A stretch of 64,000 nucleotides of DNA from a virus. Lineage: Duplodnaviria; Caudoviricetes. The notes below the pieces were generated by a model, which worked only from the letters and a program-made list of their open reading frames with translations, was not told the origin of the DNA and searched no databases. Below, piece by piece: positions 330 through 64,000 of this stretch. The stretch covers positions 64,001-128,000 of IMG/VR virus record IMGVR_UViG_2882238243_000002; one strand, given 5' to 3'. The translations under genes and the position numbers were made by a program. The number at the start of each line of letters is the position of its first letter. The first letter of the stretch is position 1.

Positions 330-458
330 CAATAAAATTCTTATTTAATTGGGTGGCATAAAGGGAAACTGATATGGCTCGCTGACGACATTTAGAGATG
401 CTATAAACAATAATGACCCATTAAAACTATTCATGTAAGCGAAAAGGAGATAACAAAA

Positions 459-635
459 ATGAAAAAACCGGACATTGAGAAAATGGACAATATGGATCTT
501 ATATACCTACTATGTATCAATCATACTAAAGAAACGAAAACGGCACGAAAAGAAGAAAAAATCTGTATAGAAACTTTATGGAAACGTGGCATAGTGAACA
601 AGGAAACAATGTTAAAGAAGTTTGATATTGAGTAA
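459..635 (+). CDS. small hypothetical protein (58 aa, below the ORF-track cutoff)
   Basis: AAGGAG RBS, ATG 459, TAA 635, followed by a repeat site at 642. Confidence 0.6.
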   Translation: MKKPDIEKMDNMDLIYLLCINHTKETKTARKEEKICIETLWKRGIVNKETMLKKFDIE

Positions 636-673
636 AACATAAGAAAGAGGTATTTCGTAAGTTTTTAAATTGC

Positions 674-702
674 TTGAAAAATTTCATATATTCAGTTATA
701 AT
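674..702 (+). promoter_or_regulatory. sigma70-type promoter of the HTH gene
   Basis: TTGAAA-17-TATAAT. Confidence 0.6.
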
Positions 703-727
703 AATTACATTATCGGAATAAGAAAGG

Positions 728-952
728 GTGATCTATATATTAACTACACAACAAAAAATAAAAGTTGCTTGTGACGTTGCAGGTATGAGTTTAACAGAAC
801 TTGGGGCAAAAATGGGAATGAGTCAAGCTAATTTTTCAAAACGTTTAAAGGTTGGGAAATTTACACAAGATGAATATATAGAAATGGCTAAATGCTTAGG
901 CTGTAAATATATTTCATGTTTTGAATTTCCAGATGGTAACAAAGTAGAGTAG
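728..952 (+). CDS. XRE-family HTH transcriptional regulator
   Basis: GMSLTELGAKMGMSQANFSKRLK helix-turn-helix pattern; the true start may be ATA at 737. Confidence 0.8.
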   Translation: MIYILTTQQKIKVACDVAGMSLTELGAKMGMSQANFSKRLKVGKFTQDEYIEMAKCLGCKYISCFEFPDGNKVE

Positions 953-2990: not shown

Positions 2991-3200
2991 TTGAAAAGTA
3001 AGTTTTATTTGAAGAATGGAGGAATTAACACAATGGATAATTACACATTAAAAAATTATAAAATTACTTTTGAAAGAAGTAATAAAAGTATCGGTTATGA
3101 TTTTTTTAAAGCAACTTCAGAAGCGGAAGCAAGGTATAATTTTAAAGAATGTTATAGGCATGACGTGTATAAAATTATATCAGTAGAACAAGTAAGGTAG
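2991..3200 (+). CDS. hypothetical protein
   Basis: ORF; likely start is the ATG after GGAGG at about 3033. Confidence 0.6.
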   Translation: MKSKFYLKNGGINTMDNYTLKNYKITFERSNKSIGYDFFKATSEAEARYNFKECYRHDVYKIISVEQVR

Positions 3201-4425: not shown

Positions 4426-4473
4426 TGAAAGACGAATTTCAAGCCTGTTTGGGCAGAAAGTAGGGGTTAATAT

Positions 4474-4674
4474 ATGAAAGAATTTAGAGTTGTAGACGAA
4501 GATATGAATGTTTACGGAGAATTTGATGGAATAGTGGCAGCTTGTAGAGAGTCAAATAAAGTTAGTGGTACTTCTGTATATGTGATGGATTTAAAAACTA
4601 AAACAATTAAAGAAATTTTATCAGATAAAACAGTTGAGTATTTTGCTAATTATGAACTAAGCCATGTCAGATAA
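4474..4674 (+). CDS. hypothetical protein
   Basis: ORF; stop codon overlaps a repeat site. Confidence 0.6.
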   Translation: MKEFRVVDEDMNVYGEFDGIVAACRESNKVSGTSVYVMDLKTKTIKEILSDKTVEYFANYELSHVR

Positions 4675-4710
4675 AAGGAAAATTTCATATAAGGATTGGA
4701 GGAAATTAAA

Positions 4711-5095: not shown

Positions 5096-5229
5096 TATTC
5101 AATCAAAAATAGATTTCAGTAAATGGTAGGAAGATAAACATAACATTAAATCGTTCTACTTATGGAAAATCAGAAACTAAACAGAGAATAACAGTAGGAA
5201 GGTAAAAGCCTTCCTTTTATGTTGCAAAA

Positions 5230-6225: not shown

Positions 6226-6269
6226 CTTGAAATTCACATTTCAAGACTAATTAGAAAGGAAAAGGATAG

Positions 6270-6824: not shown

Positions 6825-6860
6825 CATATATAATGAAATGTACCTTTCTTATGGTATAGA

Positions 6861-7073
6861 TTGGAGAAAAACGATATGAAACGTATGGGATTCTATACTG
6901 GAAAAATATATGATGATTCTGTTAATCCAGCAGACATTAAAGAATGTTGTCAGTATATCAATTACAAAGAACCTATTCTTGATGATGAAGAGCTGATTAT
7001 CAGAAAACGCAAGTTGTTACATGAAAGATGTATTGAATGTAACAGTTGTGAAGAATCGAAAAAAGGTGAATGA
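6861..7073 (+). CDS. small Cys-rich protein (paralog of 4910..5095)
   Basis: MKRMGFYTGKIY..ECC..CIECNSC. Confidence 0.65.
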   Translation: MEKNDMKRMGFYTGKIYDDSVNPADIKECCQYINYKEPILDDEELIIRKRKLLHERCIECNSCEESKKGE

Positions 7074-7101
7074 TGTCTTTCAATAGAGGAGGAATAACGA
7101 G

Positions 7102-8800: not shown

Positions 8801-8988
8801 ACGCGAAAAATAGCTAGTTAAACTAAGCATTAGTGGGTAAGAAAAGATGAAACATAGGTTTCAACCGGCACTGGGTTGTGTCGCTGACCATTAAAAACTA
8901 ATGGTAGATATTTCAAGATTATAGTATAATAACAATAACAGAATATAGTGGATAAAGACCTACATGGTAGGCAGAAAGAGGTATAGGA

Positions 8989-9811: not shown

Positions 9812-10183
9812 ATGGCGAGAAAAATAAAAATTAAAGACTACTTAGGTGATGAGTATCAAGGTTCTTGGAACGGAAAAGAATATAGCTCAAAATTTTCAGA
9901 CGGAAAGGATCTTGTACGAATTTATATCGATGACGAAGAGGTTCATGTTGAGCGTAAAGAATTAGATAAAATTTACGCTGGCGATGAAAGACTTCATCTG
10001 AAAATGCAAGCAAATTTATTAGATGAAATAATGAAGCAAGATGATGAGTTTCTCAAAAAAGTATTGAGCAAAGTTATAGGCTGTGGTAGGCTAGTTAATA
10101 GAAAAGAGCGGAACGAAATTATTACAATATTGGACAATAGCACTACATTTAAAGCCATAGAAGAAAAGGATTACAGATATTAG
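9812..10183 (+). CDS. hypothetical protein
   Basis: ORF with RBS. Confidence 0.7.
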   Translation: MARKIKIKDYLGDEYQGSWNGKEYSSKFSDGKDLVRIYIDDEEVHVERKELDKIYAGDERLHLKMQANLLDEIMKQDDEFLKKVLSKVIGCGRLVNRKERNEIITILDNSTTFKAIEEKDYRY

Positions 10184-10223
10184 ACGAAGGTAAACAATAA
10201 TAAGGGACGAGGAAAACAGAAAA

Positions 10224-10706
10224 ATGGAATTGAATCATTTTACAGTAAACACTAAAAATAATAGAGTTAGTAAATCGGAGGAGGTGCTAAAAGCCACTCG
10301 GAAAAATTTGAGACAGACAATAATAGATGCACAAGGTGATTGTGGGGTTGATGTGCTTGATAATACCAACTTTAAATTAACTGTTGAAGAAAACTGTTAT
10401 ATGGGAACTCTGAGTGTCTATGAAAAAGATATATTACTCCCTATTTTAGTAACTGGTGGAGCATCTACTGAATATAGTCGAAAATATATTTGGGGTGAAA
10501 TGTTAAAAGTAAACAATGTTTTGCAAACACAAAGGTTAAATACAATACTTGATGCAAATAGCATTATTTTCCCCACCTCACCTTTAATTATGGATATTGT
10601 TATTGAGATGGTTGCAATAAAACATATTGACATAATGGAATGGACTGGTGATTTTTCAAAGTGTATAGGACATATACTGTTAGGAAGTTCAGTTGATTTC
10701 AAATAA
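10224..10706 (+). CDS. hypothetical protein
   Basis: 160-aa ORF; stop overlaps a repeat site. Confidence 0.7.
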   Translation: MELNHFTVNTKNNRVSKSEEVLKATRKNLRQTIIDAQGDCGVDVLDNTNFKLTVEENCYMGTLSVYEKDILLPILVTGGASTEYSRKYIWGEMLKVNNVLQTQRLNTILDANSIIFPTSPLIMDIVIEMVAIKHIDIMEWTGDFSKCIGHILLGSSVDFK

Positions 10707-10979
10707 AAGGATTATTTCATGATGTGATAGGAGGATGTTGATATGTGTATGCCAGAATTAAAGGAAATAAAGTAGTATCAATAAATGGATTTAAAGTTGA
10801 ATTAGATATGGTAACTTTATTCTATGGAAGCGCAGTAAGTGGGTATAAACAAAAAAGCTATATGTTATATGACGTGGAAGTATTTGAAAGATGAAATGAT
10901 TGTTTGATTGGAGCATGTGGCTCGTAAAAATAAAGGACAAACTATAAGGAAATATAAAATGTCAGTTGGAGGCTAGAAT

Positions 10980-11294
10980 ATGATTATAAAAATGAGTATT
11001 GAGAAGTATGAAGAATCTTTTGAAGAACTTAGGAATAAAATAAAATCGTTTAATACGGACAACTATATGTTTGATTTACAATTATCAGATAAGAAGATTT
11101 TTGGCAATGTATCTTCTTGTTTTGAATTAATTATAAAAACACCCGTGGTGAAAGAAGTGGAAAGAATTGAATTAGAGTTTATGTATGAAGATGTAGATAG
11201 TTATATTTATAGATTTGAACCGATAGTGAAGAATGGTCTTATTGACGAAGCTTTATTAGGACTTATGAGTTATATAGTAGAATACACTAAATAA
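10980..11294 (+). CDS. hypothetical protein
   Basis: GGAGG RBS. Confidence 0.65.
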   Translation: MIIKMSIEKYEESFEELRNKIKSFNTDNYMFDLQLSDKKIFGNVSSCFELIIKTPVVKEVERIELEFMYEDVDSYIYRFEPIVKNGLIDEALLGLMSYIVEYTK

Positions 11295-11321
11295 TAGTTT
11301 GATCAAGAAAGGAACAAAAAT

Positions 11322-11504
11322 ATGGTAACAACAGTTTGCTATAAAAATGAGAAAGTTTGGGAAACGAGAGAGTTAGCAGAACAGTATTTTTTAGAGTGTA
11401 TGATGAAATGTGACGCGGGAAGTGAAAGAGATAGATATGTTAATATTTATTGTAAATTAAAGAGTGGAAGAGATTACTGCACTGACAATATAGATGAAAT
11501 TTGA
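11322..11504 (+). CDS. hypothetical protein
   Basis: GSERDRYVNIY motif; RBS. Confidence 0.65.
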   Translation: MVTTVCYKNEKVWETRELAEQYFLECMMKCDAGSERDRYVNIYCKLKSGRDYCTDNIDEI

Positions 11505-11686
11505 GATTTATAGGATGTAATTATATGAATGCAACATATTATAACAATGAACAACTTTTAAAATCTGTTGTTCAGCTAGAAAAAGATTGGAAAAGATTGT
11601 ACCCGAATGGAGATATTGACAACCCATTATATGAAGGATTACAATATGAAAGGTACTTATGTAATAAGCGAGGACTTAACTATTGA
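11501..11686 (+). CDS. hypothetical protein
   Basis: ORF; likely ATG start at about 11525. Confidence 0.55.
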   Translation: MRFIGCNYMNATYYNNEQLLKSVVQLEKDWKRLYPNGDIDNPLYEGLQYERYLCNKRGLNY

Positions 11687-11720
11687 TTAGTGAAATCTAA
11701 GATTCAAGGAGGATTTTAAA

Positions 11721-11909
11721 ATGAGTGGTATTAAATTTAAATCTGTGCCTAAACACGCAAATATTATACATGAGACCCCAATTATAGAAATTGATGGTGT
11801 TGAATTACATGGGTGCGTGACAAATAAAGACGACGATGAAATTTTAAAAGTTAAGGTTTCAAAATGGAGCGATATGGTACATATTGCTAACGCTCACACC
11901 GATGCATGA
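11721..11909 (+). CDS. hypothetical protein
   Basis: AGGAGG RBS; flanked by repeat sites at 11691 and 11913. Confidence 0.65.
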   Translation: MSGIKFKSVPKHANIIHETPIIEIDGVELHGCVTNKDDDEILKVKVSKWSDMVHIANAHTDA

Positions 11910-11941
11910 CCGTGAAATCATCGTTTCAAAGGACTGAGAAA

Positions 11942-12193
11942 TCAGTCCTTTTTTGTACGGTGAAATGTTGGATCGTCAGTACGTCCGACTAAATAATCTA
12001 TAGACGTTTGAAAATAATCAGCTAATTTTATTACCATGTCTAAACTTGGCTTTTTCTGTTCATTTTCAAAATTACTGATTGTTGCTCTCGTAGCCCCTAA
12101 ATCATTAGCTAATTGCTCCATCGTTAATCCTTTAGATGTACGAAGTTCTTTTAATCTAGTGGAAAATGATGGAAGAAAAAAGAAAAAAAACAT
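11942..12193 (-). CDS. XRE-family (CI/ImmR-like) repressor
   Basis: RLKELRTSKGLTMEQLA..ISNFE..PSLDMVIKLADYF..SIDYLVGRTD; ATG at 12193 after GAGGTG. Confidence 0.9.
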   Translation of the reverse strand: MFFFFFLPSFSTRLKELRTSKGLTMEQLANDLGATRATISNFENEQKKPSLDMVIKLADYFQTSIDYLVGRTDDPTFHRTKKD

Positions 12194-12204
12194 TTTATCA
12201 CCTC

Positions 12205-12250
12205 TTGACAAAAGTATTCAAATAGAATACAATGTATTCAGATGGAATAC
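12205..12250 (+). promoter_or_regulatory. divergent switch promoter with tandem GTATTC-N5-GAATAC operators
   Basis: TTGACA(12205)-17-TACAAT(12228); perfect palindromes at 12214-12230 and 12234-12250. Confidence 0.8.
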
Positions 12251-12283
12251 AAACGAGATATAAAAACTGGAAAGGAGAGCAAA

Positions 12284-12472
12284 ATGAGCCAGTTAAAGAA
12301 ACTTCGTTTGCAACATCATTGGACTCAACAATATGTAGCAGATGTTATTGGTATTACAAAGGCAGCTTATTCTAATATAGAAAATGGAAATAGAAATCCA
12401 TCATTAAAAATTGCTTTACATCTGCAAAATATATTTGGTCTACAAATAGAAAAAATATTGGAAAAAGAATAG
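12284..12472 (+). CDS. Cro-like XRE regulator
   Basis: LKKLR..WTQQYVADVIGITKAAYSNIENGNRNPS; ATG 12284 after AAGGAG. Confidence 0.88.
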   Translation: MSQLKKLRLQHHWTQQYVADVIGITKAAYSNIENGNRNPSLKIALHLQNIFGLQIEKILEKE

Positions 12473-12570
12473 CGGTTTCACTCCGACCAAAGAACGAAAA
12501 CCGCTACACCGTAACTTGGATTTAATCCCTAAGTCGATTACATTCTATCGTACTTTCAGGACTAATTCAA
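12461..12570 (-). ncRNA. candidate antisense sRNA unit A
   Basis: minus-strand TTGAAT-17-TAGAAT promoter; hairpin at 12470-12506 followed by a U-rich tail. Confidence 0.5.
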
Positions 12571-12708
12571 GTCAAATTTTCCAAAACAGAGCACATTGAC
12601 AATTAAATCCATCCACAAACGGAGAATAACAAAGTGAAACCGTAAGCGTAATACCGTAAATTCGCTGTGAAGTGTGTGACGGATGATAAAAGAAAGGATG
12701 ATATTATT

Positions 12709-13458
12709 ATGAAGAAAAATTATGAAGTAAAAGAAGTTCCGTTTAAAGGAGACTCATTATTAGGAGTAAAAGATGAAACAGGACAAGTTTGGTTAGGAGT
12801 TAGAAAGTGTTGTCTTGATATTGGATTAACAGAGCATCAAGCTGATAGGCAAAGAGATAATATTAAGAACGATTTAGCATTATCCAAAGGGTACTCAAAT
12901 TTGGATATCCCTACAAATGGAGGAATTCAAAAGGTGTTATGTATTAGCGAAAAGTTTGTCACATTATGGCTTGCTAAAATTTCACTAACTCCTACTATGC
13001 AGAAGAAGAATCCGAAGGCAGTACAAAAACTACTTGAATACCAGCTAGAAGCTGCTGATGTTCTTCATAAAGCATTTTATGAGACAGAAGAACAGAAGTC
13101 TGCGTTTAACGCTAGAATTGGTTTAGAGGGACATATTGAGGTTATGCAAGTACAGATTAATAACATGGAAAGTATGTTAGAAACACAGACCGAAAAACTT
13201 GATAGAGTTGTAGAAAATATGACACTTTCTACCAGGCAACAGCAGAAACTTTATAAAGCAGCTAAAGACAGGATCAATCATCTTTTGGGTGGCGCTCATA
13301 GCAGAGAGTATAAAGCTAATGCAAAAAGTTATTTTATTAACCTTTGGAACGGTTTGAAATCTCGCTTTGAGTGTGGCAGCTCATATAAGGATCTAAATCC
13401 CGTTTATTATAATGAAGCCTTCGACTTTATTTCTGAATGGGAATATGTAGAGGGATAA
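12709..13458 (+). CDS. phage antirepressor-like protein, copy 2
   Basis: C-terminal two-thirds nearly identical to 2084..2845. Confidence 0.82.
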   Translation: MKKNYEVKEVPFKGDSLLGVKDETGQVWLGVRKCCLDIGLTEHQADRQRDNIKNDLALSKGYSNLDIPTNGGIQKVLCISEKFVTLWLAKISLTPTMQKKNPKAVQKLLEYQLEAADVLHKAFYETEEQKSAFNARIGLEGHIEVMQVQINNMESMLETQTEKLDRVVENMTLSTRQQQKLYKAAKDRINHLLGGAHSREYKANAKSYFINLWNGLKSRFECGSSYKDLNPVYYNEAFDFISEWEYVEG

Positions 13459-13467
13459 TACATATAA

Positions 13468-13584
13468 CATAATTCACGTTTTACATATGCGGTCGGTAGC
13501 TGTCAAAGGCTGTCGGCTGATTTCTGACATGCTGTATATGCGATGTCGATGGTCTTATACTTTCCCATTGTAAAGAAAGTAGTT
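13468..13584 (+). ncRNA. conserved structured element, copy B (leader of the recombinase gene)
   Basis: 12-bp GU-rich stem at 13490-13519 with GTCAAA loop; shares the AAAGAAAGTAGTT end with copy A. Confidence 0.45.
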
Positions 13585-13617
13585 ACTAGAAATGATTTCT
13601 GGAAAGGAAGTGAAACT

Positions 13618-14613
13618 ATGTGCTACAAAGAAGAAGTACAAAGAAAAAATGCTGAGAAGTTACAACGAAAATTTGATGAAGAGAATGTACCAGAATTTAT
13701 TCAGGACTTTTTCCCACGCATAGCAAGTAGAGCTGCAAGGATTAATTATTGGTCAACTATTAAAAATATGCTTAAATGGTTAATGGAAAATAATTTCATA
13801 AAAAGAGATAAGCTAAGTGATATAGTATCTGATGATATTAAAAACATCAGACCTGCAAAGATGATTTCCTACTTTGAGTATTTAAAATATGATAAAAAGA
13901 TATCACTCAACACACTAAGCACTCAAAAAAATCAGCTTGGAAGTTTTTGGGAGTACTTAAAGGAAGAACACTATCTTGACGATAATATTGTCCATATGGT
14001 CAAATCAGAAGAATTTAAGCCAGCAAAAACAAACAGAAGAAAGATGGAAAAAATGCCATTACATGAAGATGTTGAAGAGATGATTGAAAAAATACTCAGA
14101 AAGCCAGATGAATTTATAAGGATAAGAAATATTATGGTGTTTAGAGTGTTGAGAGGAACTGGACTAAGAGAGTCTGAATTAGCTGGATTAGATATTGATA
14201 ATTTATTTTTAGAAGAAGAACATCCCTATATTCTTGTAATCAGTAAAGGAACCTATGATTACTCAGATAATGGAAAAGATATAGTATATCTCACTAAAGA
14301 TGCAACAGCGGCTTTAAATGAGTGGTTAGAATATCGAATGGAACTAGATGATATTGTAGATAGTAAAGCCATTTTTCTCAACAAAAATGGAAAGCGTATG
14401 AATGAGGAAAATATTCAAAACATGTTTAAAACCTATTCTAGTGGAAAATTAACGCCACACATGATGAGACATGAATATACCACTATATTACAAAGAGAAA
14501 CGAATGATCCAACGTTCGTACAGGAGCAAGGAAGGTGGAAGTCTGATAAGGTTATGAGGTCTGTATATGATAGTGGGGCAAGTAGGTCTTTGGGTAAACT
14601 GGCAAATATGTAA
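13618..14613 (+). CDS. tyrosine recombinase/integrase (XerC-like)
   Basis: TGLRESEL (R), SKG (K), PHMMRH (HxxR), GRW (W), VY (Y); ATG 13618 after AAAGGAAG. Confidence 0.9.
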   Translation: MCYKEEVQRKNAEKLQRKFDEENVPEFIQDFFPRIASRAARINYWSTIKNMLKWLMENNFIKRDKLSDIVSDDIKNIRPAKMISYFEYLKYDKKISLNTLSTQKNQLGSFWEYLKEEHYLDDNIVHMVKSEEFKPAKTNRRKMEKMPLHEDVEEMIEKILRKPDEFIRIRNIMVFRVLRGTGLRESELAGLDIDNLFLEEEHPYILVISKGTYDYSDNGKDIVYLTKDATAALNEWLEYRMELDDIVDSKAIFLNKNGKRMNEENIQNMFKTYSSGKLTPHMMRHEYTTILQRETNDPTFVQEQGRWKSDKVMRSVYDSGASRSLGKLANM

Positions 14614-14881
14614 ACATAAGAATTGTGTGTTTCATAGAGAATGGATTTGTGATAAAATTGAAAGAGAATTAAAAAGAATGCAAGGACGGAGCCGGTTTAC
14701 CATGAAGAAAATTTTAGACTACACAATTAATAAAGATGATATGGCAAAGATGGACGATAGAGAAGTGGCAGAATTGTTAATGTACACCGATAGAGATAGA
14801 AAAGAATTAGAAGTTGCCGAGAAAATATATTGGTGGTGTGTTGAAGAAATTAATCGAAGAGAAGATGAGGTGGTTTCATGA
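14567..14881 (+). CDS. hypothetical protein
   Basis: ORF; true start probably downstream (about 14702). Confidence 0.5.
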   Translation: MIVGQVGLWVNWQICKHKNCVFHREWICDKIERELKRMQGRSRFTMKKILDYTINKDDMAKMDDREVAELLMYTDRDRKELEVAEKIYWWCVEEINRREDEVVS

Positions 14882-15075
14882 AATGCACATTAGAAGAGGA
14901 TGTTAATACTTGTCAATTCTTCAAAAGAGAGGTTCACACATGAAATGAAGGTAAATGTTCTTTTCAGGAAGAAGACGAAACAAACGTAAACGGAGAATAT
15001 ACAAGAGATAAGCGTTGGTATGAGCAATATTACAAGAAGAAAGATTGATTTCAAGTGAAGAGGAGGATTTAACAT

Positions 15076-15297
15076 ATGGAAACTATTTTGTATGGGGAGC
15101 ATAGCGTGTGGAAATTTTTAAAAAAAGATAGATATACCAAAGAAGGAATAAAGAAAACAGAACAGATTTATGATTTTCTTCAAAAGATGAAAGAAGATGT
15201 GGGTGTTGACAGAATGAGAGAATTGTTTGATATGTGGAATGAATATAGTGATGAGACATTTTGGATTTTATCAAACATTACTCATGATAATGAATAG
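15076..15297 (+). CDS. hypothetical protein
   Basis: AGGAGG RBS; flanked by repeat sites. Confidence 0.65.
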   Translation: METILYGEHSVWKFLKKDRYTKEGIKKTEQIYDFLQKMKEDVGVDRMRELFDMWNEYSDETFWILSNITHDNE

Positions 15298-15328
15298 CAG
15301 TTAAAAGCCAGATTAATAGGAGGAAATG

Positions 15329-15855
15329 ATGGAAAAATTTATGAACGAACCAATCCCATATGAGCGGACTAATAAAGACATTATTCAGGAATATGAAAAG
15401 TGCCAAGATAAAAAGAAAGTGGCTGTCATATGGGGAATTAGTGTAAAAGAAGTTGATGAGATATTAAAACAAGAGAAGACTTGAGGTGATGTTATATGAA
15501 AGTAAAGAGAAATAATCCGGAGTGGTGTTGTCAACAGATTGAGGATAAAATACAAGATTATAAAATAAGTATAACTGAAACAGAAAACGAAGATGTAAGA
15601 AGGCAATTAGAAATTATTGTTGAGGACTTAGAAGAAATATTATATGGATGAAATGCTGTTTTCAAATTAAAAATTATTCAGGAGGATAATATGAATATGG
15701 ATAGTAAGATTAATAATTTATTATATTTAGAAACAATCATAACAAACCTGATACACCGTGAAATTGAAGAATTATTAAGAGGAAAAGAATCGGATAGTCA
15801 AAAACTTAAAGAAAGTATTATATACCAAATAGATGACAGACTGAATACACGATAA
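15329..15855 (+). CDS. three small hypothetical genes (15329-15484, 15496-15651, 15691-15855)
   Basis: each has a strong RBS; two stops overlap repeat sites. Confidence 0.55.
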
Positions 15856-16029
15856 AATCAACTTTAAAAAGAAATTCATGTAAAAAGAAGTTAGAAGATA
15901 TGGAATATGAGGTGAGCTTTTCTCCAGATAATTATGAATTAGTGATACGAAAATTTGATATGATAGACAAGCATTGAATAAAATCTTTGTTTGTGGTTGG
16001 AGAATAATAAACGTAAAGAGGTAAGGTAG

Positions 16030-16281
16030 ATGAAATTAAATTTTAGCTTGAAGAATAAGGAAGCAAGTTTAGAAGCAGATGTTGAAGGGGTTATTGAAAA
16101 AGGTTTCGAGCATAGGGCTAAAAATCCTAATAGAAAAACTCGACATCAGATCAAACAAGAAGAAAAACGGTTGAATGAAGAATTAAAACAGAAAAAGTTA
16201 ATTCAGGGTATGCTGCTGATGATGGGACTCATTGTTTTTGCTCTAATTATCTGCGCAATCGGATCTGCGTTGAATTGGTAG
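16030..16281 (+). CDS. C-terminally anchored membrane protein
   Basis: hydrophobic C-terminus. Confidence 0.65.
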   Translation: MKLNFSLKNKEASLEADVEGVIEKGFEHRAKNPNRKTRHQIKQEEKRLNEELKQKKLIQGMLLMMGLIVFALIICAIGSALNW

Positions 16282-16342
16282 AAAAGATGTGAGAATTAGT
16301 GGTAAGATACAATGAAAGGATAGTTTCGTGGGAGGTGATGTT

Positions 16343-16698
16343 GTGGGATTTGATATGTACCTGATTAAGGTGGACAAAAATAAGATAAGAAATTTAGAAG
16401 AACCTTTGTGGCAAGAAATTCAAGATGCAACGATTGATGAAGTAGATAACTATTATCCTGTTTTACATGATTTTTATTAGGATCATGATGATTTACAATG
16501 GATATATGAAGAATATAATCTCTTATCGGAAATCAGTTTGACTGAAATAATTGAGTGGTTAAAAGAGAAAATAAAAACAAAAAAAACTTTGGTTTAGATA
16601 GTAGCGAAGAAAGAATGACTAAAATGGTTTATGAAAATATAAAAGATTGGATTCCTCTAAAAGAAAATGAGATTGTTTATTTTGAGGAAGATAGCTAA
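16343..16698 (+). pseudogene. disrupted hypothetical gene
   Basis: GGAGGTG RBS; begins MGFDMYL; in-frame TAG at 16478 and a frameshift near the A-run at about 16580. Confidence 0.55.
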
Positions 16699-16737
16699 TA
16701 AAAGAGAAATCTCTTTTGGAAAGGAGAATAAGTAATT

Positions 16738-16950
16738 ATGGACAATAAAAAATGCATTGAGATTTTAGAAACTTTAAAATGCGACTTAGATGACAATTGG
16801 GACAAATCAGACCCTGAAATAATTCAAATTATAAATAGATATTTTTCCGCTATTGATCATGCGATTATCAGTTTATCAAGTAAGAATATGGTAGGAGAAC
16901 TGATTATTGAAGACAAAAAATATATTATTTGTGGACAAGAATTGAGTTGA
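16738..16950 (+). CDS. hypothetical protein
   Basis: AAGGAG RBS. Confidence 0.65.
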   Translation: MDNKKCIEILETLKCDLDDNWDKSDPEIIQIINRYFSAIDHAIISLSSKNMVGELIIEDKKYIICGQELS

Positions 16951-16975
16951 TGATTTACTAGATAGGAGGGCTTGT

Positions 16976-17551
16976 ATGAGCGTGGAAATGCAAATTGCTT
17001 TATTGGGTATCATAGGCACCCTTGTAGGTACAGTATTAGGTTGGTTTTTAAATAATCTGTCACAGCGAGGAAAACTTAATATATATGTTTCATCTTGGAA
17101 AGATAAATTCGAGTACAATCATATTGGAACAATGGTTCCTAGTTCAAGCATCGAACAGACTGAAAGTTATTCATACAGATTAGCACTCGATTTATATAAC
17201 GATAGTGGTGAAACAAAGATAATGAGAAATGTTGAAATTGTATTTGCTAAAAACAAAGAGGTATTGTATTGCAGTGTTCCCAAAGATGAAGCAACTGGGC
17301 GAACAAGCCATCCGATGGCATATTATGATGATGTATTACCTATAAACATCCCACCAAAGACTGTTTTACATATAGAACTCTTCAAAGGGGTTTGGAAAAG
17401 TAATACCTCACTTGATTTTATTTGGAAAACTACTTCGGTATTTTTGAGATATGTAAACGAGAATAATAAAAAAGTAAGTGTTATGATTAATAAAGTAAAC
17501 TACAAGGATTATTTTATTCATCATAAGACAGATGAGCAAGATAATGAATAA
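16976..17551 (+). CDS. N-terminally anchored membrane protein
   Basis: IALLGIIGTLVGTVLGWFL; AGGAGG RBS. Confidence 0.75.
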   Translation: MSVEMQIALLGIIGTLVGTVLGWFLNNLSQRGKLNIYVSSWKDKFEYNHIGTMVPSSSIEQTESYSYRLALDLYNDSGETKIMRNVEIVFAKNKEVLYCSVPKDEATGRTSHPMAYYDDVLPINIPPKTVLHIELFKGVWKSNTSLDFIWKTTSVFLRYVNENNKKVSVMINKVNYKDYFIHHKTDEQDNE

Positions 17552-17581
17552 AAGTTCAGTTTCAATACGGGAGGGATAAAT

Positions 17582-17806
17582 ATGGATTGGAATAAAGTAA
17601 ATCTAAGAAGTAAAGATAAAAATTTACCACAAGCGGACATACCTGTAATATGGGCAACTAATGAAGAAACTCATGATGAAAAGATATTCCATAAATTTAT
17701 TGGATGGCTAAGTAAGGATTGTAAATATGTGGAGTCTGGATGGAAAAGATATAGAGTAACTAGTAAATTCTGGTGGCAGGAATTGCCAGATGATCCGGAA
17801 ATTTAA
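17582..17806 (+). CDS. hypothetical protein (DUF551-like pattern)
   Basis: W..V..LP at the N-terminus and WQELPDDP at the C-terminus. Confidence 0.6.
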   Translation: MDWNKVNLRSKDKNLPQADIPVIWATNEETHDEKIFHKFIGWLSKDCKYVESGWKRYRVTSKFWWQELPDDPEI

Positions 17807-17848
17807 TATATAATGAATGTGAAATTTCGTAGCATTGGGAGAAAGTAG

Positions 17849-18604
17849 GTGATATTTATAATTTATGTAACCGGAGATACTCATGGAGATTGGATGAGCC
17901 GTTTAAATTCTAATTCATTTCCAGAGCAAAAGGAGATGACCAAGGATGATTATGTGATTATCTGTGGTGATTTTGGTATATGGGACAACTCCAACAGAGA
18001 AAAATATAATCTAAATTGGCTCGAAGATAAACCTTTTACAACACTGTTTGTGTCTGGAAATCATGAAAACTATGATATTCTTGACTCATTGTCAATTTCA
18101 GAATGGCACGGTGGCAACGTCAATTACATAAGACCATCAGTAATGCACTTGATGCGTGGACAGGTTTTTAATATTGAAGGTAAGAATTTCTTTACATTTG
18201 GTGGCGCAAGTAGCCATGATATTTCAGATGGAATTTTGGAGAAAGACGATCTCAAAATAAAAAAATGGAGAAAAGATTATTCTAAAATGTTTCGTATTAA
18301 CCATGTCTCATGGTGGGAAAGAGAATTACCTTCCAACGAAGAAATGAATGAAGGAATTGCAAAACTTGCTGTTGTTAAAAATAAAGTTGATTATATTATC
18401 ACTCATAGTCCATATACATGGCTATTAAAGCAGGTGGATGGTGGTAGTGGACTGTATAAACCGGATATACTGACCGATTACTTGCAAGACATCAAGCAAA
18501 CTGTTGATTATAAGCATTGGATGTTTGGGCACATGCACACCAATCAAACGTTTTATTGGGAAAGAGCAAGTTGCTTATATGAACAGATTATTAGAATAGA
18601 ATAA
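17849..18604 (+). CDS. calcineurin-like metallophosphoesterase
   Basis: GDTHG, CGDFG, GNHE, THS and FGHMH motifs; likely ATA start at 17858. Confidence 0.9.
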   Translation: MIFIIYVTGDTHGDWMSRLNSNSFPEQKEMTKDDYVIICGDFGIWDNSNREKYNLNWLEDKPFTTLFVSGNHENYDILDSLSISEWHGGNVNYIRPSVMHLMRGQVFNIEGKNFFTFGGASSHDISDGILEKDDLKIKKWRKDYSKMFRINHVSWWERELPSNEEMNEGIAKLAVVKNKVDYIITHSPYTWLLKQVDGGSGLYKPDILTDYLQDIKQTVDYKHWMFGHMHTNQTFYWERASCLYEQIIRIE

Positions 18605-18658
18605 TGAAATGTCCAAACGTGAATTATAGTATTAATAAAAAAAAGAAATAAATTCCTA

Positions 18659-18687
18659 TTGAAAAAGAACAACTGTTCGATTATAAT
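18659..18687 (+). promoter_or_regulatory. SOS-regulated promoter (LexA box between -35 and -10)
   Basis: TTGAAA-17-TATAAT enclosing GAAC-AACT-GTTC (18667-18678). Confidence 0.85.
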
Positions 18688-18718
18688 AACCTTATCCAAT
18701 AATTTAGGAGGTGTCATT

Positions 18719-19984: not shown

Positions 19985-19995
19985 TTCAAAGGAAG

Positions 19996-20316
19996 GTGAT
20001 TTTTGTGGGAATGGGCATCGGAATAAATGATACAATTACCGATGAAGGTGTGATAAAGGGGCATCAAGAAGAAGTGGCTTGTGATGCGTGGTTTACAGCT
20101 AGCGGCAGAATAATTATTCGCCTTATAAAACAAAAGAAAAAAGACGAAAGTATAGTTGAAATAGATAATATTCGTGTACTTTCATCATCTAAAAAGAACT
20201 TTTGTGGTATTCAAACGATAGAATTTATATGCGAAGCAGTTGTTGAAGGTTTTATGAAAAGATTTAAGCTGTTCTTTTACACAGAAGAACAAATATGGAG
20301 GATGATAATGTTGTAA
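19996..20316 (+). CDS. hypothetical protein in the mutagenesis cassette
   Basis: lies between dinB and the SRAP gene. Confidence 0.65.
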   Translation: MIFVGMGIGINDTITDEGVIKGHQEEVACDAWFTASGRIIIRLIKQKKKDESIVEIDNIRVLSSSKKNFCGIQTIEFICEAVVEGFMKRFKLFFYTEEQIWRMIML

Positions 20317-23737: not shown

Positions 23738-23753
23738 TTTGGGGGACATAGTC

Positions 23754-35021: not shown

Positions 35022-35064
35022 ACTAATGAAATTTTAGTTTCCTTTGAAGAGAGGTGGTGGAATT

Positions 35065-40865: not shown

Positions 40866-40894
40866 AATGAAAGTCGAGTTTCATTAGAAAAGGG

Positions 40895-42890: not shown

Positions 42891-42928
42891 AATCTTGGTT
42901 TAATCTTGCATATGAAAGGTACTGAATT

Positions 42929-46135: not shown

Positions 46136-46168
46136 AACAAATCTTTCGTATGGAAATGAGGTGAGATT

Positions 46169-46618: not shown

Positions 46619-46651
46619 CAGACGAAACGTGAATTTCAAGTTAGAAATGAG

Positions 46652-49309: not shown

Positions 49310-49770
49310 TGGCAAGAGAACTAATTTGGGTTGAATCAGAATTAGTACCTAAAATCGAATTGATTCAAGATATTATAAAACTAAAAGGAGAAGATATTAG
49401 TAAGGCAATTAATAAGTTGGTTGAAAATACAGATGTTTTAAAAACTGATAATATCGACACTTCTCTTCTTGAAATCAAACTACATGCTGCGAAAGTTAGA
49501 AATACATATAAGGAATTAGTAGACAAAGAGATCGAAGAGACGAATGTGTTATGGGAAGAATGTGATAGTCGAATCTATGAAAGCAGAACAAAGATTAATC
49601 AAATAAAAGACACTTTTAGCGAGTTATCCAGTAGTATAAAAGAGTGTTCTAACAGTTTGGATAGATGGGAAATGGATAAATTTTCAGATGCTATGGATTT
49701 AATTGACAGATATAATCAGTACTCAGATAAAGAGAAGGAATTACTAAAAGGACTAATGAAATCAGAATGA
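49294..49770 (+). CDS. coiled-coil hypothetical protein
   Basis: stop overlaps a perfect repeat site. Confidence 0.7.
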   Translation: MGGKVMARELIWVESELVPKIELIQDIIKLKGEDISKAINKLVENTDVLKTDNIDTSLLEIKLHAAKVRNTYKELVDKEIEETNVLWEECDSRIYESRTKINQIKDTFSELSSSIKECSNSLDRWEMDKFSDAMDLIDRYNQYSDKEKELLKGLMKSE

Positions 49771-49798
49771 AAGGTGGGTTTCAACCGTAGAAAAAGAG

Positions 49799-52489: not shown

Positions 52490-52825
52490 ATGGCAAATAT
52501 AAAAGCCGATGAATCTCCTGTTTCATTCGGAGAAAGATTTACTCTATTATATTGGTTTGGCGGCTAATGAGATGGCAAGAAAGTTTTTACATAAAATCAT
52601 ATCAATTAAAAATTCCAATATTTAAACTGAACAGAGAATATCTGCACGGGTGCTAAAATAGCTCACCCTTGGGAGAGTTCGCTCATAAATAGCTATTTTT
52701 ACATAGATTTTTCATTATAGAGTGATTTTCTATGTATCGTCCGGGAGGGCGTTGAAGTAATAGATGTTTTAATATTTTACATATTTAACATACAAAAAAT
52801 TTAATTAACGGAGGTAGTTTATTTA

Positions 52826-59997: not shown

Positions 59998-59998
59998 A

Positions 59999-62900
59999 AT
60001 AGGGACTTTAGAATTAATCAAAACAATTATTCCAACGCTGAATTTTAAATTTCCGTATTCAGCAGAGGATTATGCAGAGAATTTATATCTTGAAAATTAT
60101 CATTGCCATAAAGATTTTAGCAATACAAGTACACCTGATTGTGCAGAATCTATTGAGAATTATGCAAAGTTGACTCATGAATATCAGTCTAAATGTTTGT
60201 TTTCAGGAGATCATGGTTCACAAGGAAATCAATTCTTGGTATATAAAACTTCCGAAAATGAAAAATTAAAATATATTCATTCAACAGAAGCTTATTGGGT
60301 GAAGAATCGGTATGAAAAAGATAGAAAAAATTGTCACATGGTTATTGTCGCTAAGAATGCAGATGGTAGGGGCGATATCAACTTTGCCCTATCAAGAGCA
60401 AATGAGGATGGATATTACTATAAACCAAGAATTGACTTGGAATTATTGTTTGATATTCCAAAGGATAATGTAATTGTTACCTCTGCGTGTATTGCAGGTT
60501 GGAATTACGAAGATGCTGAAGATATTTGGATTAAAATTCACAACTATTTTGGCGATAATTTTTATCTCGAAGTTCAACCACATAATACAGATAAACAAAA
60601 GAAACTTAACCAGAAGATTCTTAGAATTGCCAAGGATAACAATATCCAGATTATAGCTGGCATGGATAGTCACTTTTTAAATGATAAATCATCAGTAAAA
60701 CGTGATCAGATTCTTAAATATAAGGGAGTAAATTATCCAGACGAAGAAGGATGGTACATGGATTGGCCGGATACTAAGACGGTAATCCAGAGATTTAAAG
60801 AACAAGGTATCTTATCCGAAGAAGATATTTATAGATCTATTATGAACACTAATGTGTTTGTAACAGAGTGCAGAGAGATTATTCTTGATAAATCATTCAA
60901 AATTCCCACTGTCTATCAAGGTAAGACATATGAAGAAAAGTGCAAGATATACAAACATGAACTAAATATCGCTTATGCAAAAGAAAAGGAAAAGTCAAAA
61001 AAAAAGGCAGATGGAGTAAGGTACGAAGCCAAGGAAGTTATGGATTCTGGTGTTGTAGATTATTTCCTAACAAGCAAGGCTATTGTTGATGATGCGGTGA
61101 ACAATGAGGGAGGTATATTAACAACAACTTCTCGTGGTAGTGCAGCTTCATTTATTACAAATAAATTATTAGGACTTACAACCGTCGATAGATTCAATGC
61201 TGATATCCCTATTTATCCAGAAAGGTTTTTAACAAAAGAACGTGTTGTTGCGGGTATGATGCCTGATATTGATTTAAACGTAGCTACTCAAGAACCGTTT
61301 GTAAAAGCGACAAGGAAATTATTGGGAGAACATGGCTGCTATCCATTAATGGCTATAGAAAAACTAAAAGAAAAGGCTGCATGGCAATTATACGCTGGTG
61401 CCAATGATGTTAGCCCTGATGATGCAAATCAAATCTCAAAGTACCTAGATGAATACAACAAAGCATTAAAATATGCTGATGACGAAGAAAAAGATTTGAT
61501 TTTGGTTGAAGATTATATTCCCGATGATTATTTGGAATTATATAAACAAAGTAACGAATATCAGGGGATTACAATCAATTTAAAATGTCATGCCTGTGGA
61601 CACATAATTTTTAATGGAGATGTTCGTAGAGAAATTGGACTCATCAGTGCTGTTTCTGAAACAACTGGTCAAAGAACTCTTTGTGCTGCTATTGAAGGTG
61701 GATACCTTGATGAATTTGGATATGTAAAAGAAGATTTTCTTATTGTTGATAGTGTTTATCTTACATATAAATTTTTTGGCAGTATTGGCATGAAAGTTCC
61801 AACATTTGATGAACTTAGAAAAATGATAGACGGAGATAAACTCACATGGAAAATATACGAAAAGGGTATCACTTGTTGTGTGAATCAATGTGAAAAAGAC
61901 GCTACTACTAATAGGGTTAAGAAATATAAACCACAAAATTTACGGGAATTGAGTAGTTTTATAGCCGCTATACGCCCTGGATTTGCATCTCTATTGAGCA
62001 CATTTTTGAATAGGGATCAGTATACAACAGGAGAATCAAAAATTGATGACTTACTGTCAGATACTGCTCATTTCATGATATATCAAGAATCAATTATGAA
62101 AGTTTTATCATTCCTGAAATTGGAAATGGGAGAAACATATGGTGTAATCAAGTCCATTTCAAAGAAAAAATTGAAGGGAGAAAAGAAACAACGCTTATTA
62201 AATGAACTGACTACATCATGGAGAGAAGAATTTCATAACACTAATAGTTTTAATAATGTGTGGAATGTTATTGAGGATTCAGCTAGATACGCTTTCAACT
62301 CCCCTCATGCTTACAGTATGGGAGGAGATAGTGCATATCAAGCGTGGTTTAAAGCACATCATACAAAAGAGTTTTATGAGGTCGCCATTAACCACTATCA
62401 AGAAAAAAATAAGAAGAACAAAATTGATGCACTCGTGAAAGAGGCTATAAAGTTTTATGGGTATAAACTAGGAGATTACGAATTTGGAGCAGACAATAGA
62501 AAAGTTACAATTGATGAGGAATTTGGATTGATTTATCCTAATCTATCTAGTATTAAGGGGTTTGGAGAAGGAGTATCTGAAACACTTTTTGAGTTAGGAC
62601 AAGAAGAATATGACAATTTTACAGATGTCCTGACGATTCTGTTTTCAAACTCGATAAACAAAACTGTTATTGACAAACTGATTAGAATTAACTATTTCAA
62701 AAAATACGGCGATGTTAATACTCTTTTGTGGATAACAAAATATTATGACTTAGTATTTGAAGCTAAGACCATATCAAAGTCAAAGGCTGAGAAAAACAAT
62801 CTTCCATTTGATATCTTGAAAAAACATGGAAACGAAACAGAAAAACAGTTTAACAAAATTAATTCAGTTGACTTGTTGAATGAACTAATTCAAAACATCA

Positions 62901-63292
62901 AATATCAAGAACTAACTATAAAAGAGCGTCTGGATAATGAGAGAGAGGTATTGGGAATTGTATCTAGTTATGAAGAGAAAGCTGATAAGAGATTATATTA
63001 CATCTCAGAATTAGAGTCTAAGAAGTCAATCACAAATGTAAGACTGTTTGAAATCTATAGTGGTAAAACTAGAGAAGTAAAAATGTGGACGAGTCAGTAT
63101 AATAAGAGTCATTTTGAATTGGGTGATATTCTGTATATAACCTGTTTGGAGAAAAAGAATAAAAAAGAGCCAACAGGTGAAATAAATCCAGATACTGGGA
63201 AAAAGATATATAAGGAGATACCTGATAAATTTGAATACTGGTTGAGCAGATTCATTATAAAAAATGAAATTGAAAACGAGGTGAGAGATTGA
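59999..63292 (+). CDS. dnaE: DNA polymerase III alpha subunit
   Basis: PHP motifs (YHCH, DHG, DSH), RGSAAS, PDIDL and YAFNSPHA; ATA start needed to include YHCH. Confidence 0.93.
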   Translation: MGTLELIKTIIPTLNFKFPYSAEDYAENLYLENYHCHKDFSNTSTPDCAESIENYAKLTHEYQSKCLFSGDHGSQGNQFLVYKTSENEKLKYIHSTEAYWVKNRYEKDRKNCHMVIVAKNADGRGDINFALSRANEDGYYYKPRIDLELLFDIPKDNVIVTSACIAGWNYEDAEDIWIKIHNYFGDNFYLEVQPHNTDKQKKLNQKILRIAKDNNIQIIAGMDSHFLNDKSSVKRDQILKYKGVNYPDEEGWYMDWPDTKTVIQRFKEQGILSEEDIYRSIMNTNVFVTECREIILDKSFKIPTVYQGKTYEEKCKIYKHELNIAYAKEKEKSKKKADGVRYEAKEVMDSGVVDYFLTSKAIVDDAVNNEGGILTTTSRGSAASFITNKLLGLTTVDRFNADIPIYPERFLTKERVVAGMMPDIDLNVATQEPFVKATRKLLGEHGCYPLMAIEKLKEKAAWQLYAGANDVSPDDANQISKYLDEYNKALKYADDEEKDLILVEDYIPDDYLELYKQSNEYQGITINLKCHACGHIIFNGDVRREIGLISAVSETTGQRTLCAAIEGGYLDEFGYVKEDFLIVDSVYLTYKFFGSIGMKVPTFDELRKMIDGDKLTWKIYEKGITCCVNQCEKDATTNRVKKYKPQNLRELSSFIAAIRPGFASLLSTFLNRDQYTTGESKIDDLLSDTAHFMIYQESIMKVLSFLKLEMGETYGVIKSISKKKLKGEKKQRLLNELTTSWREEFHNTNSFNNVWNVIEDSARYAFNSPHAYSMGGDSAYQAWFKAHHTKEFYEVAINHYQEKNKKNKIDALVKEAIKFYGYKLGDYEFGADNRKVTIDEEFGLIYPNLSSIKGFGEGVSETLFELGQEEYDNFTDVLTILFSNSINKTVIDKLIRINYFKKYGDVNTLLWITKYYDLVFEAKTISKSKAEKNNLPFDILKKHGNETEKQFNKINSVDLLNELIQNIKYQELTIKERLDNEREVLGIVSSYEEKADKRLYYISELESKKSITNVRLFEIYSGKTREVKMWTSQYNKSHFELGDILYITCLEKKNKKEPTGEINPDTGKKIYKEIPDKFEYWLSRFIIKNEIENEVRD

Positions 63293-63819
63293 AATATTAC
63301 TATACTGAAAAGCAATTGAAGGAACTAGTTTCTCACCTCGTAATCCTTCACACTACTAATGAGCAGAAGAACCAACATATTTTGGATTATTATGATAAAA
63401 GAAGTATTAAACATAAGGCAAAAGCTTTAAAGACGGGAGACTATTCATTTATGATAGAATCTTGTCCAGAATTAGGATTTGCAAAGGATACATATTTTAC
63501 AGATGAATTATGCATTGAAAGAAAAAATTCTGTTGATGAATTGGCAGGGAATATCAAAGAACATGATGAAAGATTCTTCAAAGAACTAAACAGGATGATT
63601 AATATCAAAAATTCTTATCTCTTAATAGAGAACAATAGATTAGACGATATCATCAGCCACAATTACCGGTCAGAGTACAACGAACTTGCTTTTATCAGAA
63701 GATTGTTAGGAGTTCAAAAGGTGGCAAATATTTATATTAATTTTGTAAATAAAGAGAATATGGGATTTATGATTTATGAGATTTGTTACAGTGCTTTAAT
63801 GGGACAGATACTGAAATGA
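63289..63819 (+). CDS. ERCC4/XPF-domain nuclease
   Basis: EQ, LKTGDYS, IERKNS.DEL and LLIE motifs. Confidence 0.85.
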   Translation: MKYYYTEKQLKELVSHLVILHTTNEQKNQHILDYYDKRSIKHKAKALKTGDYSFMIESCPELGFAKDTYFTDELCIERKNSVDELAGNIKEHDERFFKELNRMINIKNSYLLIENNRLDDIISHNYRSEYNELAFIRRLLGVQKVANIYINFVNKENMGFMIYEICYSALMGQILK

Positions 63820-64000
63820 TTTTATTTTTCAAATGAAACATATTTTTCATAAAGAAAATCGGAGGTAGTGAAACATGATAATTGAAAGTAAAAAATATGC
63901 AATCGCAACTAAGGGGTTCCCGCTATTATTTGATGATGGAGAAGGAAATAACGTAAGTAATTTTGAAGAAGCTTTTCTGAGTTCATATGAAAGCACCGAA

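Follow-up and report, generated by a model that had tools for sequence, protein, structure and literature searches.

Phage genomes are mosaics, and to our knowledge the frequent exchange of their genes exactly at gene borders is largely unexplained, with few clear examples to support the idea of conserved linkers. The question of what marks such borders is raised by a stretch of 64,000 nt of viral DNA (Duplodnaviria; Caudoviricetes), positions 64,001–128,000 of IMG/VR record IMGVR_UViG_2882238243_000002 and referred to here as the window, in which a 16 bp palindrome, TGAAA-N6-TTTCA, recurs between the stop codon of one gene and the ribosome-binding site of the next. An earlier note, made from the sequence of the window, had proposed that these sites delimit gene cassettes. 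The explanation put forward here, tentatively, is that the sites are protein-recognised double-stranded DNA elements that mark the exchange points of early-gene modules, and that they are most likely minimal core sites of the phage's own Xer-like recombinase, encoded at 13618–14613.

Eleven perfect copies of the motif are present in the window where 0.56 are expected, and none of 100 shuffled sequences reaches 11. The earlier note had estimated fewer than one copy by chance and had suggested a comparison with shuffled sequence, which bears the estimate out. All ten of the perfect copies that it listed are present, with an eleventh at 21030. With one mismatch or fewer there are 35 sites against 11.2 expected (18 in the largest shuffle), so roughly 24 of the sites at this stringency are real. 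Convincing placement between a stop codon and a ribosome-binding site is seen for about 24–28 window sites; the enrichment behind the earlier figure of about 50 sites therefore stands, although the figure itself was too high. A looser core, GAAA-N6-TTTC with up to one mismatch in its 8 positions, is matched 113 times against 69 in first-order Markov simulations, and 24 of these 113 matches have a stop codon within −25 to +3 nt and a start codon within 70 nt.

The window maps to G000:C8:283855-347854 in a host genome of 4.26 Mb and 40% G+C, where it is enclosed by an island of ~150 kb and about 32% G+C at ~215–367 kb of C8. This low-GC island is a large prophage. On a gene map of our own making, the output of a crude open reading frame (ORF) finder, the late genes lie on the − strand at about 239–280 kb and the early genes in a long + strand run at about 281–365 kb. 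Among all 5-mer inverted repeats with gaps of 0–12, TGAAA with a gap of 6 is the top inverted repeat of the prophage (17 copies against 1.47 expected), and 6 is the sole enriched spacing for these arms, as was expected from the fixed spacer length first described. The genome as a whole holds 41 perfect copies, these 17 included. Sites of the prophage are confined to the + strand early region, and the one-mismatch matches of the late region look random.

Early-region sites lie 0–10 nt past a stop codon or overlap it, and 14–35 nt ahead of the next start codon, with the ribosome-binding site at a variable distance of 0 to about 20 nt beyond the right arm in the window. By the crude gene map, 24 of the 51 same-strand spacers of 16–120 bp carry a site, as do none of the 28 gaps under 16 bp, in agreement with the placement near stop codons and between genes that had been reported. 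The left arm itself supplies the stop codon at 4672, 7768, 10704, 10892, 15649, 17549, 23023, 42888, 46133 and 49768. Two other positions formerly listed in this class, 7231 and 39049, differ from the motif by two and four mismatches respectively and are weak matches. Several motif matches fall within ORFs.

Evidence for exchange at these sites comes from relatives of the phage. Orthologues of the window recombinase are found at 63–73% identity in 17 IMG/VR contigs, several of them 150–160 kb in length, and at 53–73% identity in 25 metagenome contigs. The left arm in these relatives is often AGAAA or GTAAA, which leaves GAAA-N6-TTTC as the core. No match to window positions 10000–20000 was found among phage records by megablast, and tblastn of the recombinase against phage records gave nothing beyond integrases at 24–29% identity. 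Scans of genome contigs with the recombinase protein and with an alignment gave no closer relative, and the metagenome scan for closer relatives returned the same 53–73% clade and nothing nearer. The host family is very large; the sampling covered 400 other genera with a single genome per genus. A distant relative of 159.7 kb, G028:C55, has a terminase 55% and a polymerase 24–29% identical. It has zero TGAAA sites and 60 perfect copies of TAAAA-N6-TTTTA, of which its early region of 56 kb holds 50; its close IMG/VR relatives carry 14–15 TAAAA-N6-TTTTA sites per ~23 kb.

Sites in the orthologue-bearing relatives were accepted if at least 7 of the 8 core letters matched and if a stop codon lay within −25 to +3 nt and a start codon within 70 nt, and flanks were called non-homologous by BLASTP at 1e-3. 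The sample consisted of 13 non-redundant loci of 21 kb. L008 (5.6 kb) and L019 (842 bp) were excluded from all junction and spacer counts, while L010 and L015, which equal L009 and L014, were excluded from the spacer and core-site counts and included in the strict-motif boundary counts. A total of 143 qualified sites in the 13 loci carry 46 spacers, 28 of them recurrent. No spacer is repeated within any locus and the order of spacer types is largely collinear. The spacer had been described as variable in sequence, which is so within one genome; across relatives, however, each junction keeps its own.

The same spacer is found in 178 of 9276 inter-locus site pairs with both flanking proteins non-homologous. 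Hexamers taken 14–30 nt upstream give 6–12 identical pairs per 9276, simulated spacers a mean of 5.8 (maximum 18), and the reverse-complemented spacer none. A hexamer 8–13 nt downstream gives 146 identical pairs, which is not a fair control because this hexamer falls on the shared ribosome-binding site. The median map distance is 1.4 kb for same-spacer pairs and 5.9 kb for different-spacer pairs. The gene families that adjoin a single spacer type number as many as 5 on the upstream side and as many as 9 on the downstream side.

The point at which ancestry changes can be placed from the identity of the flanking positions. Where the upstream gene alone is shared, positions 1–2 follow it, with identities of 0.93 and 0.95 compared with 0.42 and 0.55, and where the downstream gene alone is shared, positions 16–17 follow (1.00 against 0.55 and 0.70). 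When both flanks are unrelated, identity is at background just left of the site and within 10–15 nt on the right. Since positions 1–2 track the upstream gene and positions 16–17 the downstream gene, the switch of ancestry lies inside the 13 bp AAA-N6-TTTC core. Beyond positions 0–16 identity falls to background on the left side and almost to it on the right, giving conserved arms of 5 (+1) bp. Retention of the spacer can be set against divergence of the flanks: at 0.80–0.95 flank identity, 6/6 and 9/9 spacers are unchanged against 0.66 and 0.57 expected, and below 0.6 flank identity 14/25 and 5/18 are unchanged.

The same behaviour is seen over longer regions and in other samples. Five 80 kb early regions of near-complete relatives contain 140 sites with 77 spacers, of which 34 types are shared; no type is repeated in a genome, and unrelated flanks are seen in 82 pairs that share a spacer. 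Such pairs number 266 in 15 metagenome loci, although the metagenome contigs and those of IMG/VR may be drawn from the same populations of phages. Eight shared spacer types of the TAAAA clade were checked by eye and follow the same pattern. The pair count for this clade has 19 pairs with unrelated flanks, some of them counted twice, as L031 and L033 are identical over their first 10 kb; the 13 pairs with both flanks homologous are that duplicate. In two related clades, then, the same site has unrelated genes on one side or on both, and homology switches within it, which upholds the exchange that the gene-cassette proposal had foreseen; insertion and excision of the integron kind have left no sign. 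As no closer relative was found, we infer from these two clades that the window's own sites behave in the same way.

Mosaic junctions are found at 90 of the 145 same-strand boundaries that have a core site and at 107 of the 403 that do not. For spacers of 20–120 bp the corresponding figures are 63/108 and 51/126.

The candidate protein for the sites is the product of the gene at 13618–14613 on the + strand, a 331 aa Xer-like tyrosine recombinase (PF00589, 1e-22) with an anti-repressor-like gene immediately upstream (12667–13458, + strand). Its nearest solved relatives in the PDB are XerH, XerA and XerD, and its best NCBIfam models are XerC, XerS and XerA, all with scores far below the cut-offs. 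By alignment to XerD, XerH and XerA, residues R184, K210, H281-x-x-R284, W307 and Y317 correspond to the catalytic set, and R184, K210, H281, R284, W307 and Y317 are invariant across 8 orthologues that are 64–68% identical to the window protein. The recombinase therefore looks catalytically intact from its sequence. The prophage carries two further PF00589 genes, and the one 2–3 kb from the right prophage border is probably the integrase. The TAAAA clade has an early-region PF00589 gene of its own, encoding 262 aa, which G028:C55 carries, as do, at 67% identity, G411 (100%-complete) and G414 (67%-complete); it was not found in three incomplete records, and a viral-contig search with the G028 early recombinase returned no relative. 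Thus two clades with different arm letters, each with its own early-region tyrosine recombinase, show the element at the borders of swapped genes. A relative with one PF00589 gene, G406, has no 5-6-5 motif.

Some further observations concern these genes and their surroundings. In the late region of the prophage a second Xer-like gene (G000:C8:264721-265674, − strand) adjoins a second anti-repressor-like gene (265832–266515, − strand), a pair that mirrors the one at 12667–14613 of the window. The late region of G028:C55 likewise has a PF00589 gene (102610–103125). A site type with the spacer AATTGC lies about 400–600 nt upstream of the recombinase gene in most of the loci L009–L024, and in some of these a second palindrome, GCTTTC-N5-GAAAGC, follows the AATTGC site and shares its right arm. 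On the reverse strand of G028:C55 two paralogous genes, similar over their first 20 codons, follow sites with the spacers TTACGA and GTTTAA.

A mechanism can be proposed in which the protein encoded at 13618–14613 would bind and cut the sites. The two 5 bp inverted arms would bind two recombinase subunits, and the 6 bp spacer would serve as the overlap for strand exchange. With a spacer private to each junction, a site could recombine productively solely with its counterpart junction in a second genome present in the cell, that of a co-infecting phage or a resident prophage. A private spacer at every junction means that genes would be swapped one or a few at a time, with gene order kept and deletions within a genome avoided. 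Exchange would be a site-specific reaction, and the 13 bp of identity would not be its driving force. The same logic underlies the heterospecific lox sites used for cassette exchange in the laboratory. In its widest form the proposal is that temperate phages of ~150 kb in gut Firmicutes carry a lattice of 25–50 addressed sites, with shared arms, a private 6 bp overlap, a phage Xer-like enzyme and conserved order; this wider picture is possible but doubtful.

A number of points weigh against the sites being recombinase targets. What ties the recombinase to the sites is circumstantial, namely co-location and resemblance. One relative, G408, has 3–4 PF00589 matches, two of them at the two ends of its record, and no 5-6-5 motif. 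The arms are short in comparison with those of dif sites. Passive crossover within the 13 bp of identity would give the same footprint, and type-specific identity runs about 10–15 nt downstream toward the ribosome-binding site. A stop codon within the arm and an adjoining ribosome-binding site fit first-order selection on the expression of each gene at least as well. In the early region of G028:C55 the left-arm TAA is the stop codon of the upstream ORF at 30 of the 50 sites, and an AGAGGT ribosome-binding site begins directly after the right arm. The polarity of the element, which had earlier been suspected from a GG beyond the right arm, is present but slight (A before the left arm in 20 of 28 sites, T(W)TGG often after the right arm), and it hints at a role in expression.

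The junction counts and the comparisons behind them belong with these points. Enrichment of junctions at sites is modest: once spacer length is controlled for, it is about 2-fold under the core definition. The strict motif gives none, the figures for spacers of 20–120 bp being 14/28 with a site and 111/236 without; an early strict-motif count, with 51 of 390 junctions within 20 bp of a site against 7.5 at random, was gone after the spacer-length control. Mosaic junctions are also numerous at spacers in which no site can be recognised, which implies that these phages often undergo general recombination at gene borders. Shared ancestry of the phages makes the site pairs non-independent, and flanks were judged non-homologous from the output of a crude ORF finder, by BLASTP at 1e-3 between proteins that are short. 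Between the window and five relatives, 2 of 3780 site pairs have the same spacer, a figure at the chance level (about 2 expected, taking 5.8 per 9276 as the chance rate), and none of the genes that flank the window's sites has a homologue in those five relatives.

The explanation that survives best beside exchange by the recombinase is that the sites are multi-copy operators or roadblocks, at which a phage DNA-binding dimer silences or times the early operons and gene exchange is a passive by-product. This is a possibility of some weight, if rather unlikely. The dimer could be the Xer-like protein itself, as MrpR is on the SPbeta repeated element (SPBRE), or another regulator, with a working like that of stoperators and passive exchange like that of PeSLs. 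In the 5-6-5 geometry the half-sites are separated by one turn of the helix, as is usual for helix-turn-helix dimers. Restriction of the sites to early same-strand operons, with nearly none in the late region, is in keeping with such a regulator, and a single polar element per junction, squeezed between stop codon and ribosome-binding site, fits direct selection. The lineage-specific arms, TGAAA in one clade and TAAAA in the other, resemble immunity specificities. Precedents can be found in MrpR and SPBRE (PMC10516654), in the cluster A repressors (PMC9283540) and in PeSLs (PMC2839356).

The regulator concerned would not be the repressor of the immunity switch. Divergent helix-turn-helix genes, cI-like at 11942–12211 (− strand) and cro-like at 12242–12472 (+ strand), flank the best sigma-70-like promoter of the window, TTGACA-17-TACAAT at 12205–12233, and overlapping this promoter are two 17 bp palindromes, GTATTC-N5-GAATAC at 12214–12230 and 12234–12250, which are probably the immunity-switch operators. 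The window holds no further copy of this sequence, so the classical immunity switch is served by operators of its own; the sites were accordingly rejected as operators of the cI-like repressor, and the operator model needs a second regulator. The SPbeta-type operator, which the earlier note had named as its main alternative, survives as a general mode of action and fails in its particulars: the sequence, the placement and the protein differ from those of SPBRE and MrpR. Unlike SPBRE the sites are outside promoters, for which the spacers are too short, and the 82 promoter-like matches in the window are no more than the 82.6 of shuffled sequence. The catalytic residues that the Xer-like protein retains across its orthologues would not be required of a pure repressor. 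An operator gives no reason for the retention of spacers between diverging flanks, and the exchange that accompanies it would have to be driven by homology, for which 13 bp is short.

It is unlikely, though more so than the operator explanation, that the sites are passive linkers: hot spots of microhomology or of replication-linked template switching that act without a dedicated recombinase, or elements with a role in replication, nucleoid structure or packaging. The mapping of crossovers to within the 13 bp of identity is as such linkers would have it, and so is the abundance of junctions at spacers that have no site. Such roles leave unexplained why all junction types share inverted arms at a fixed spacing of 6, why a distant clade has the same geometry with other arm letters, and why the late region is avoided.

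A very improbable reading is that of RNA punctuation, in which a small hairpin after each stop codon serves translational coupling, mRNA processing or mRNA stability. The stop codon in or just before the left arm, the ribosome-binding site after the right arm and the polarity all suit it. The pairing does not. In 97 distinct 16-mers of the relatives, pair 2-15 is G-C in 55, T-C in 23, G-A in 9, A-C in 4, G-T in 3 and G-G in 2; compensated changes are absent, G-U is almost absent, and the outermost pair is Watson-Crick in 27 of the 97. When a 5 bp hairpin is forced, its energy is −0.5 to −1.6 kcal/mol for the window sites; for those of the TAAAA clade it is +0.7 to +1.8 kcal/mol, and prediction leaves 55 of 60 sites there unfolded. 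The distance to the ribosome-binding site, which varies over about 20 nt in the window, likewise counts against a hairpin, a loop has no reason to be conserved junction by junction, and an Rfam search of the window gave no family match. An RNA hairpin or known RNA family is therefore rejected on the strength of the uncompensated mismatches, the marginal or unstable stems and the lack of an Rfam match, and on the same grounds a protein is taken to recognise the sites as double-stranded DNA, which the non-compensatory mismatches had already suggested to the earlier note. Chance pairing of TGAAA and TTTCA in an AT-rich genome, to which about 11 of the 35 one-mismatch matches can be put down and with which the several listed sites inside ORFs agree, is a negligible explanation of the motif as a whole, refuted by the shuffles, by the enrichment of gap 6 alone and by the restriction of the sites to one part of the prophage.

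Two other candidates were set aside. The arms are the same as those of cre, but the spacing of cre is 4; host cre-like sites were rejected, a central CG being present in just 2 of the 11 perfect sites. In G406 (L094) an apparent inverted-repeat family at about 84.0–84.3 kb is really a 15 bp tandem repeat, ACCGGTGTTCCAGTT and variants, and is intragenic. The genome of host G187 has 90 perfect copies of TGAAA-N6-TTTCA across many contigs, against 27 for a reversed control; many of these are TGAAA-WWCGWW-TTTCA, with CG at the centre, and appear to belong to a regulon of the host that is separate from the phage sites. Another palindrome, TTTTGCAAAA, occurs in 13 places in the longer intergenic regions of G408 (L095-L102, 144 kb), at about 103–118 kb.

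The perfect sites of the window occupy several kinds of position. That at 4426–4441 begins immediately past a stop codon with the next start 32 nt on, and that at 39291–39306 lies 6 nt past a stop. Those at 6228–6243 and 40868–40883 are at gene junctions, while at 15649–15664 and 49768–49783 the TGA of the site is the stop codon of the upstream ORF. The site at 8848–8863 is within a longer non-coding stretch, and the one at 11913–11928 is between convergent genes with a terminator-like hairpin next to it (11928–11951). The site at 27942–27957 takes up the last codons of the ORF at 26902–27969, next to a convergent gene. At 63834–63849 the site is past the gene that follows the DNA polymerase gene, with the next start 25 nt on. 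The additional copy at 21030–21045, absent from the list in the earlier note, is inside a called ORF and may be due to chance or to a mis-called ORF.

One-mismatch sites are intergenic at 2992–3007, 15038–15053 and 16313–16328, and lie at gene junctions at 6834–6849, 35027–35042 and 46623–46638. A TAA stop codon is in the left arm at 4672–4687 (where the arm is TAAAA), 10704–10719 and 17549–17564, and a TGA stop codon at 10892–10907, 42888–42903 and 46133–46148. The sites at 5103–5118 and 52510–52525 are 7 and 20 nt past a stop codon respectively. That at 7067–7082 overlaps a gene end, with a ribosome-binding site 3 nt on. A ribosome-binding site also adjoins the site at 11691–11706, whose spacer, TCTAAG, recurs in relatives at the chance level. 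Among the other genes of the window, a transposase gene (rve integrase core and HTH_21) at 31021–31935 is on the − strand, opposite to the surrounding early genes, and probably belongs to an insertion sequence. The prophage also bears a defence-type, GmrSD-like endonuclease gene at 23739–25208 of the window and a Y-family DNA polymerase gene (ImpB/MucB family) at 18659–19984.

If the recombinase acts on the sites, they would represent a phage-borne, ordered form of gene exchange with a logic like that of integrons and dif modules, distinct from both. The sites would then also form a naturally orthogonal set of recombination sites, and nature would have its own version of the cassette exchange performed with heterospecific lox sites. 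If instead they are operators, they would be a palindromic counterpart of stoperators in Firmicutes phages, and a clean case of regulatory sites that double as crossover points.

The geometry of the sites is that of Xer/dif, as the earlier note had pointed out: core sites of this type have two inverted binding arms on either side of a 6–8 bp centre, and in E. coli dif the central region is 6 bp (PMC5357621). The sites of XerH/difH and XerS/difSL likewise have inverted arms flanking a 6 bp centre, and their inner arm letters, GAAA(A)/(T)TTTC, match the phage arms; the left arm of difH is AGTTATGAAAA and the arms of difSL are TTTCCGAAAA and TTTTCTTGAAA (PMC5357621). Known Xer sites have arms of about 11 bp in that source, and dif is a single site per replicon that serves dimer resolution, whereas the phage has about 25–50 sites with arms of 5 (+1) bp and private spacers. 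Many Xer-type sites per replicon, bounding genes in varied contexts, are found in the Acinetobacter pdif modules (PMC6449649, PMC13141974 and PMC12907356). The pdif sites are 28 bp XerC/XerD sites served by host enzymes, and the modules are often several genes long. The phage sites differ in being 16 bp palindromes, with the phage's own recombinase, a single-gene grain and conserved order.

Integron cassettes are promoterless genes on the same strand, each with an imperfect palindrome near its stop codon, and their recombinase is Xer-related. The phage regions are alike in having same-strand genes with a palindrome close to the stop codon and an Xer-related recombinase nearby. The attC site is some 60–140 bp in length, has paired core boxes and travels with its own upstream gene, while attI and Pc stand next to intI. 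In contrast, the conserved phage element is 13–16 bp, the same site type stands beside several unrelated upstream genes, and no type is duplicated in a genome. Integron-like insertion was rejected for this reason, as no spacer is repeated in a genome and types do not simply move together with the upstream gene.

The layout of the prophage recalls that of SPbeta, although by sequence the kinship is distant. The prophage large terminase is 49% identical to YonF and its relatives of YorK, YorL and YolE are at 22–30% identity; YopR (MrpR), YopP, YopQ, AimR, YonO and SprA have no match in the prophage (YopR, YopP and YopQ by tblastn). According to PMC10516654, MrpR is a repressor with a recombinase fold that binds the repeated SPBRE in SPbeta and has lost the recombinase catalytic residues. 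The likeness to the system outlined there lies in a large temperate phage, a repeated palindrome and a recombinase-fold protein in the lysogeny region. A consensus for SPBRE, which is our own derivation from the upstream regions of genes named in PMC10516654, is ATACA-N7-TGTAT, located between the −35 and −10 of about 10 promoters. The phage sites differ from it in sequence and spacing and lie between stop codon and ribosome-binding site, and the SPbeta genome has zero copies of TGAAA-N6-TTTCA. No MrpR homologue was found, MrpR being absent among the PDB matches of the window recombinase at E values up to 1, and the catalytic residues are kept.

Many stoperators lie near stop codons. The repressors of cluster A mycobacteriophages halt elongation at numerous genome-wide sites, and the likeness consists in tens of sites, often in short intergenic spaces (PMC9283540), as in the spacers of the window. 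Stoperators are 13 bp, asymmetric, set in one orientation with respect to transcription, bound by a monomer and the same in sequence as the immunity operator, whereas the phage sites are palindromic and the cI/cro operators differ. PeSLs, by which modules are shuffled in phages of the T4 type, are also repeated intergenic elements among small variable genes at the borders of swaps (PMC2839356), a likeness that is seen in the relatives rather than in the window. A PeSL is a strong sigma-70 promoter with a terminator stem-loop and its exchange is driven by homology; the phage sites have no room for a promoter, no stable stem and a private spacer. A full-text literature search found no description of such phage sites. 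The ingredients all have known cousins in dif modules, integrons, stoperators, SPBRE and PeSLs, and what appears to be new is their combination: a 16 bp palindrome with junction-private spacers and a single-gene grain, in the early regions of phages with an Xer-like enzyme of their own, in two clades with different arms.

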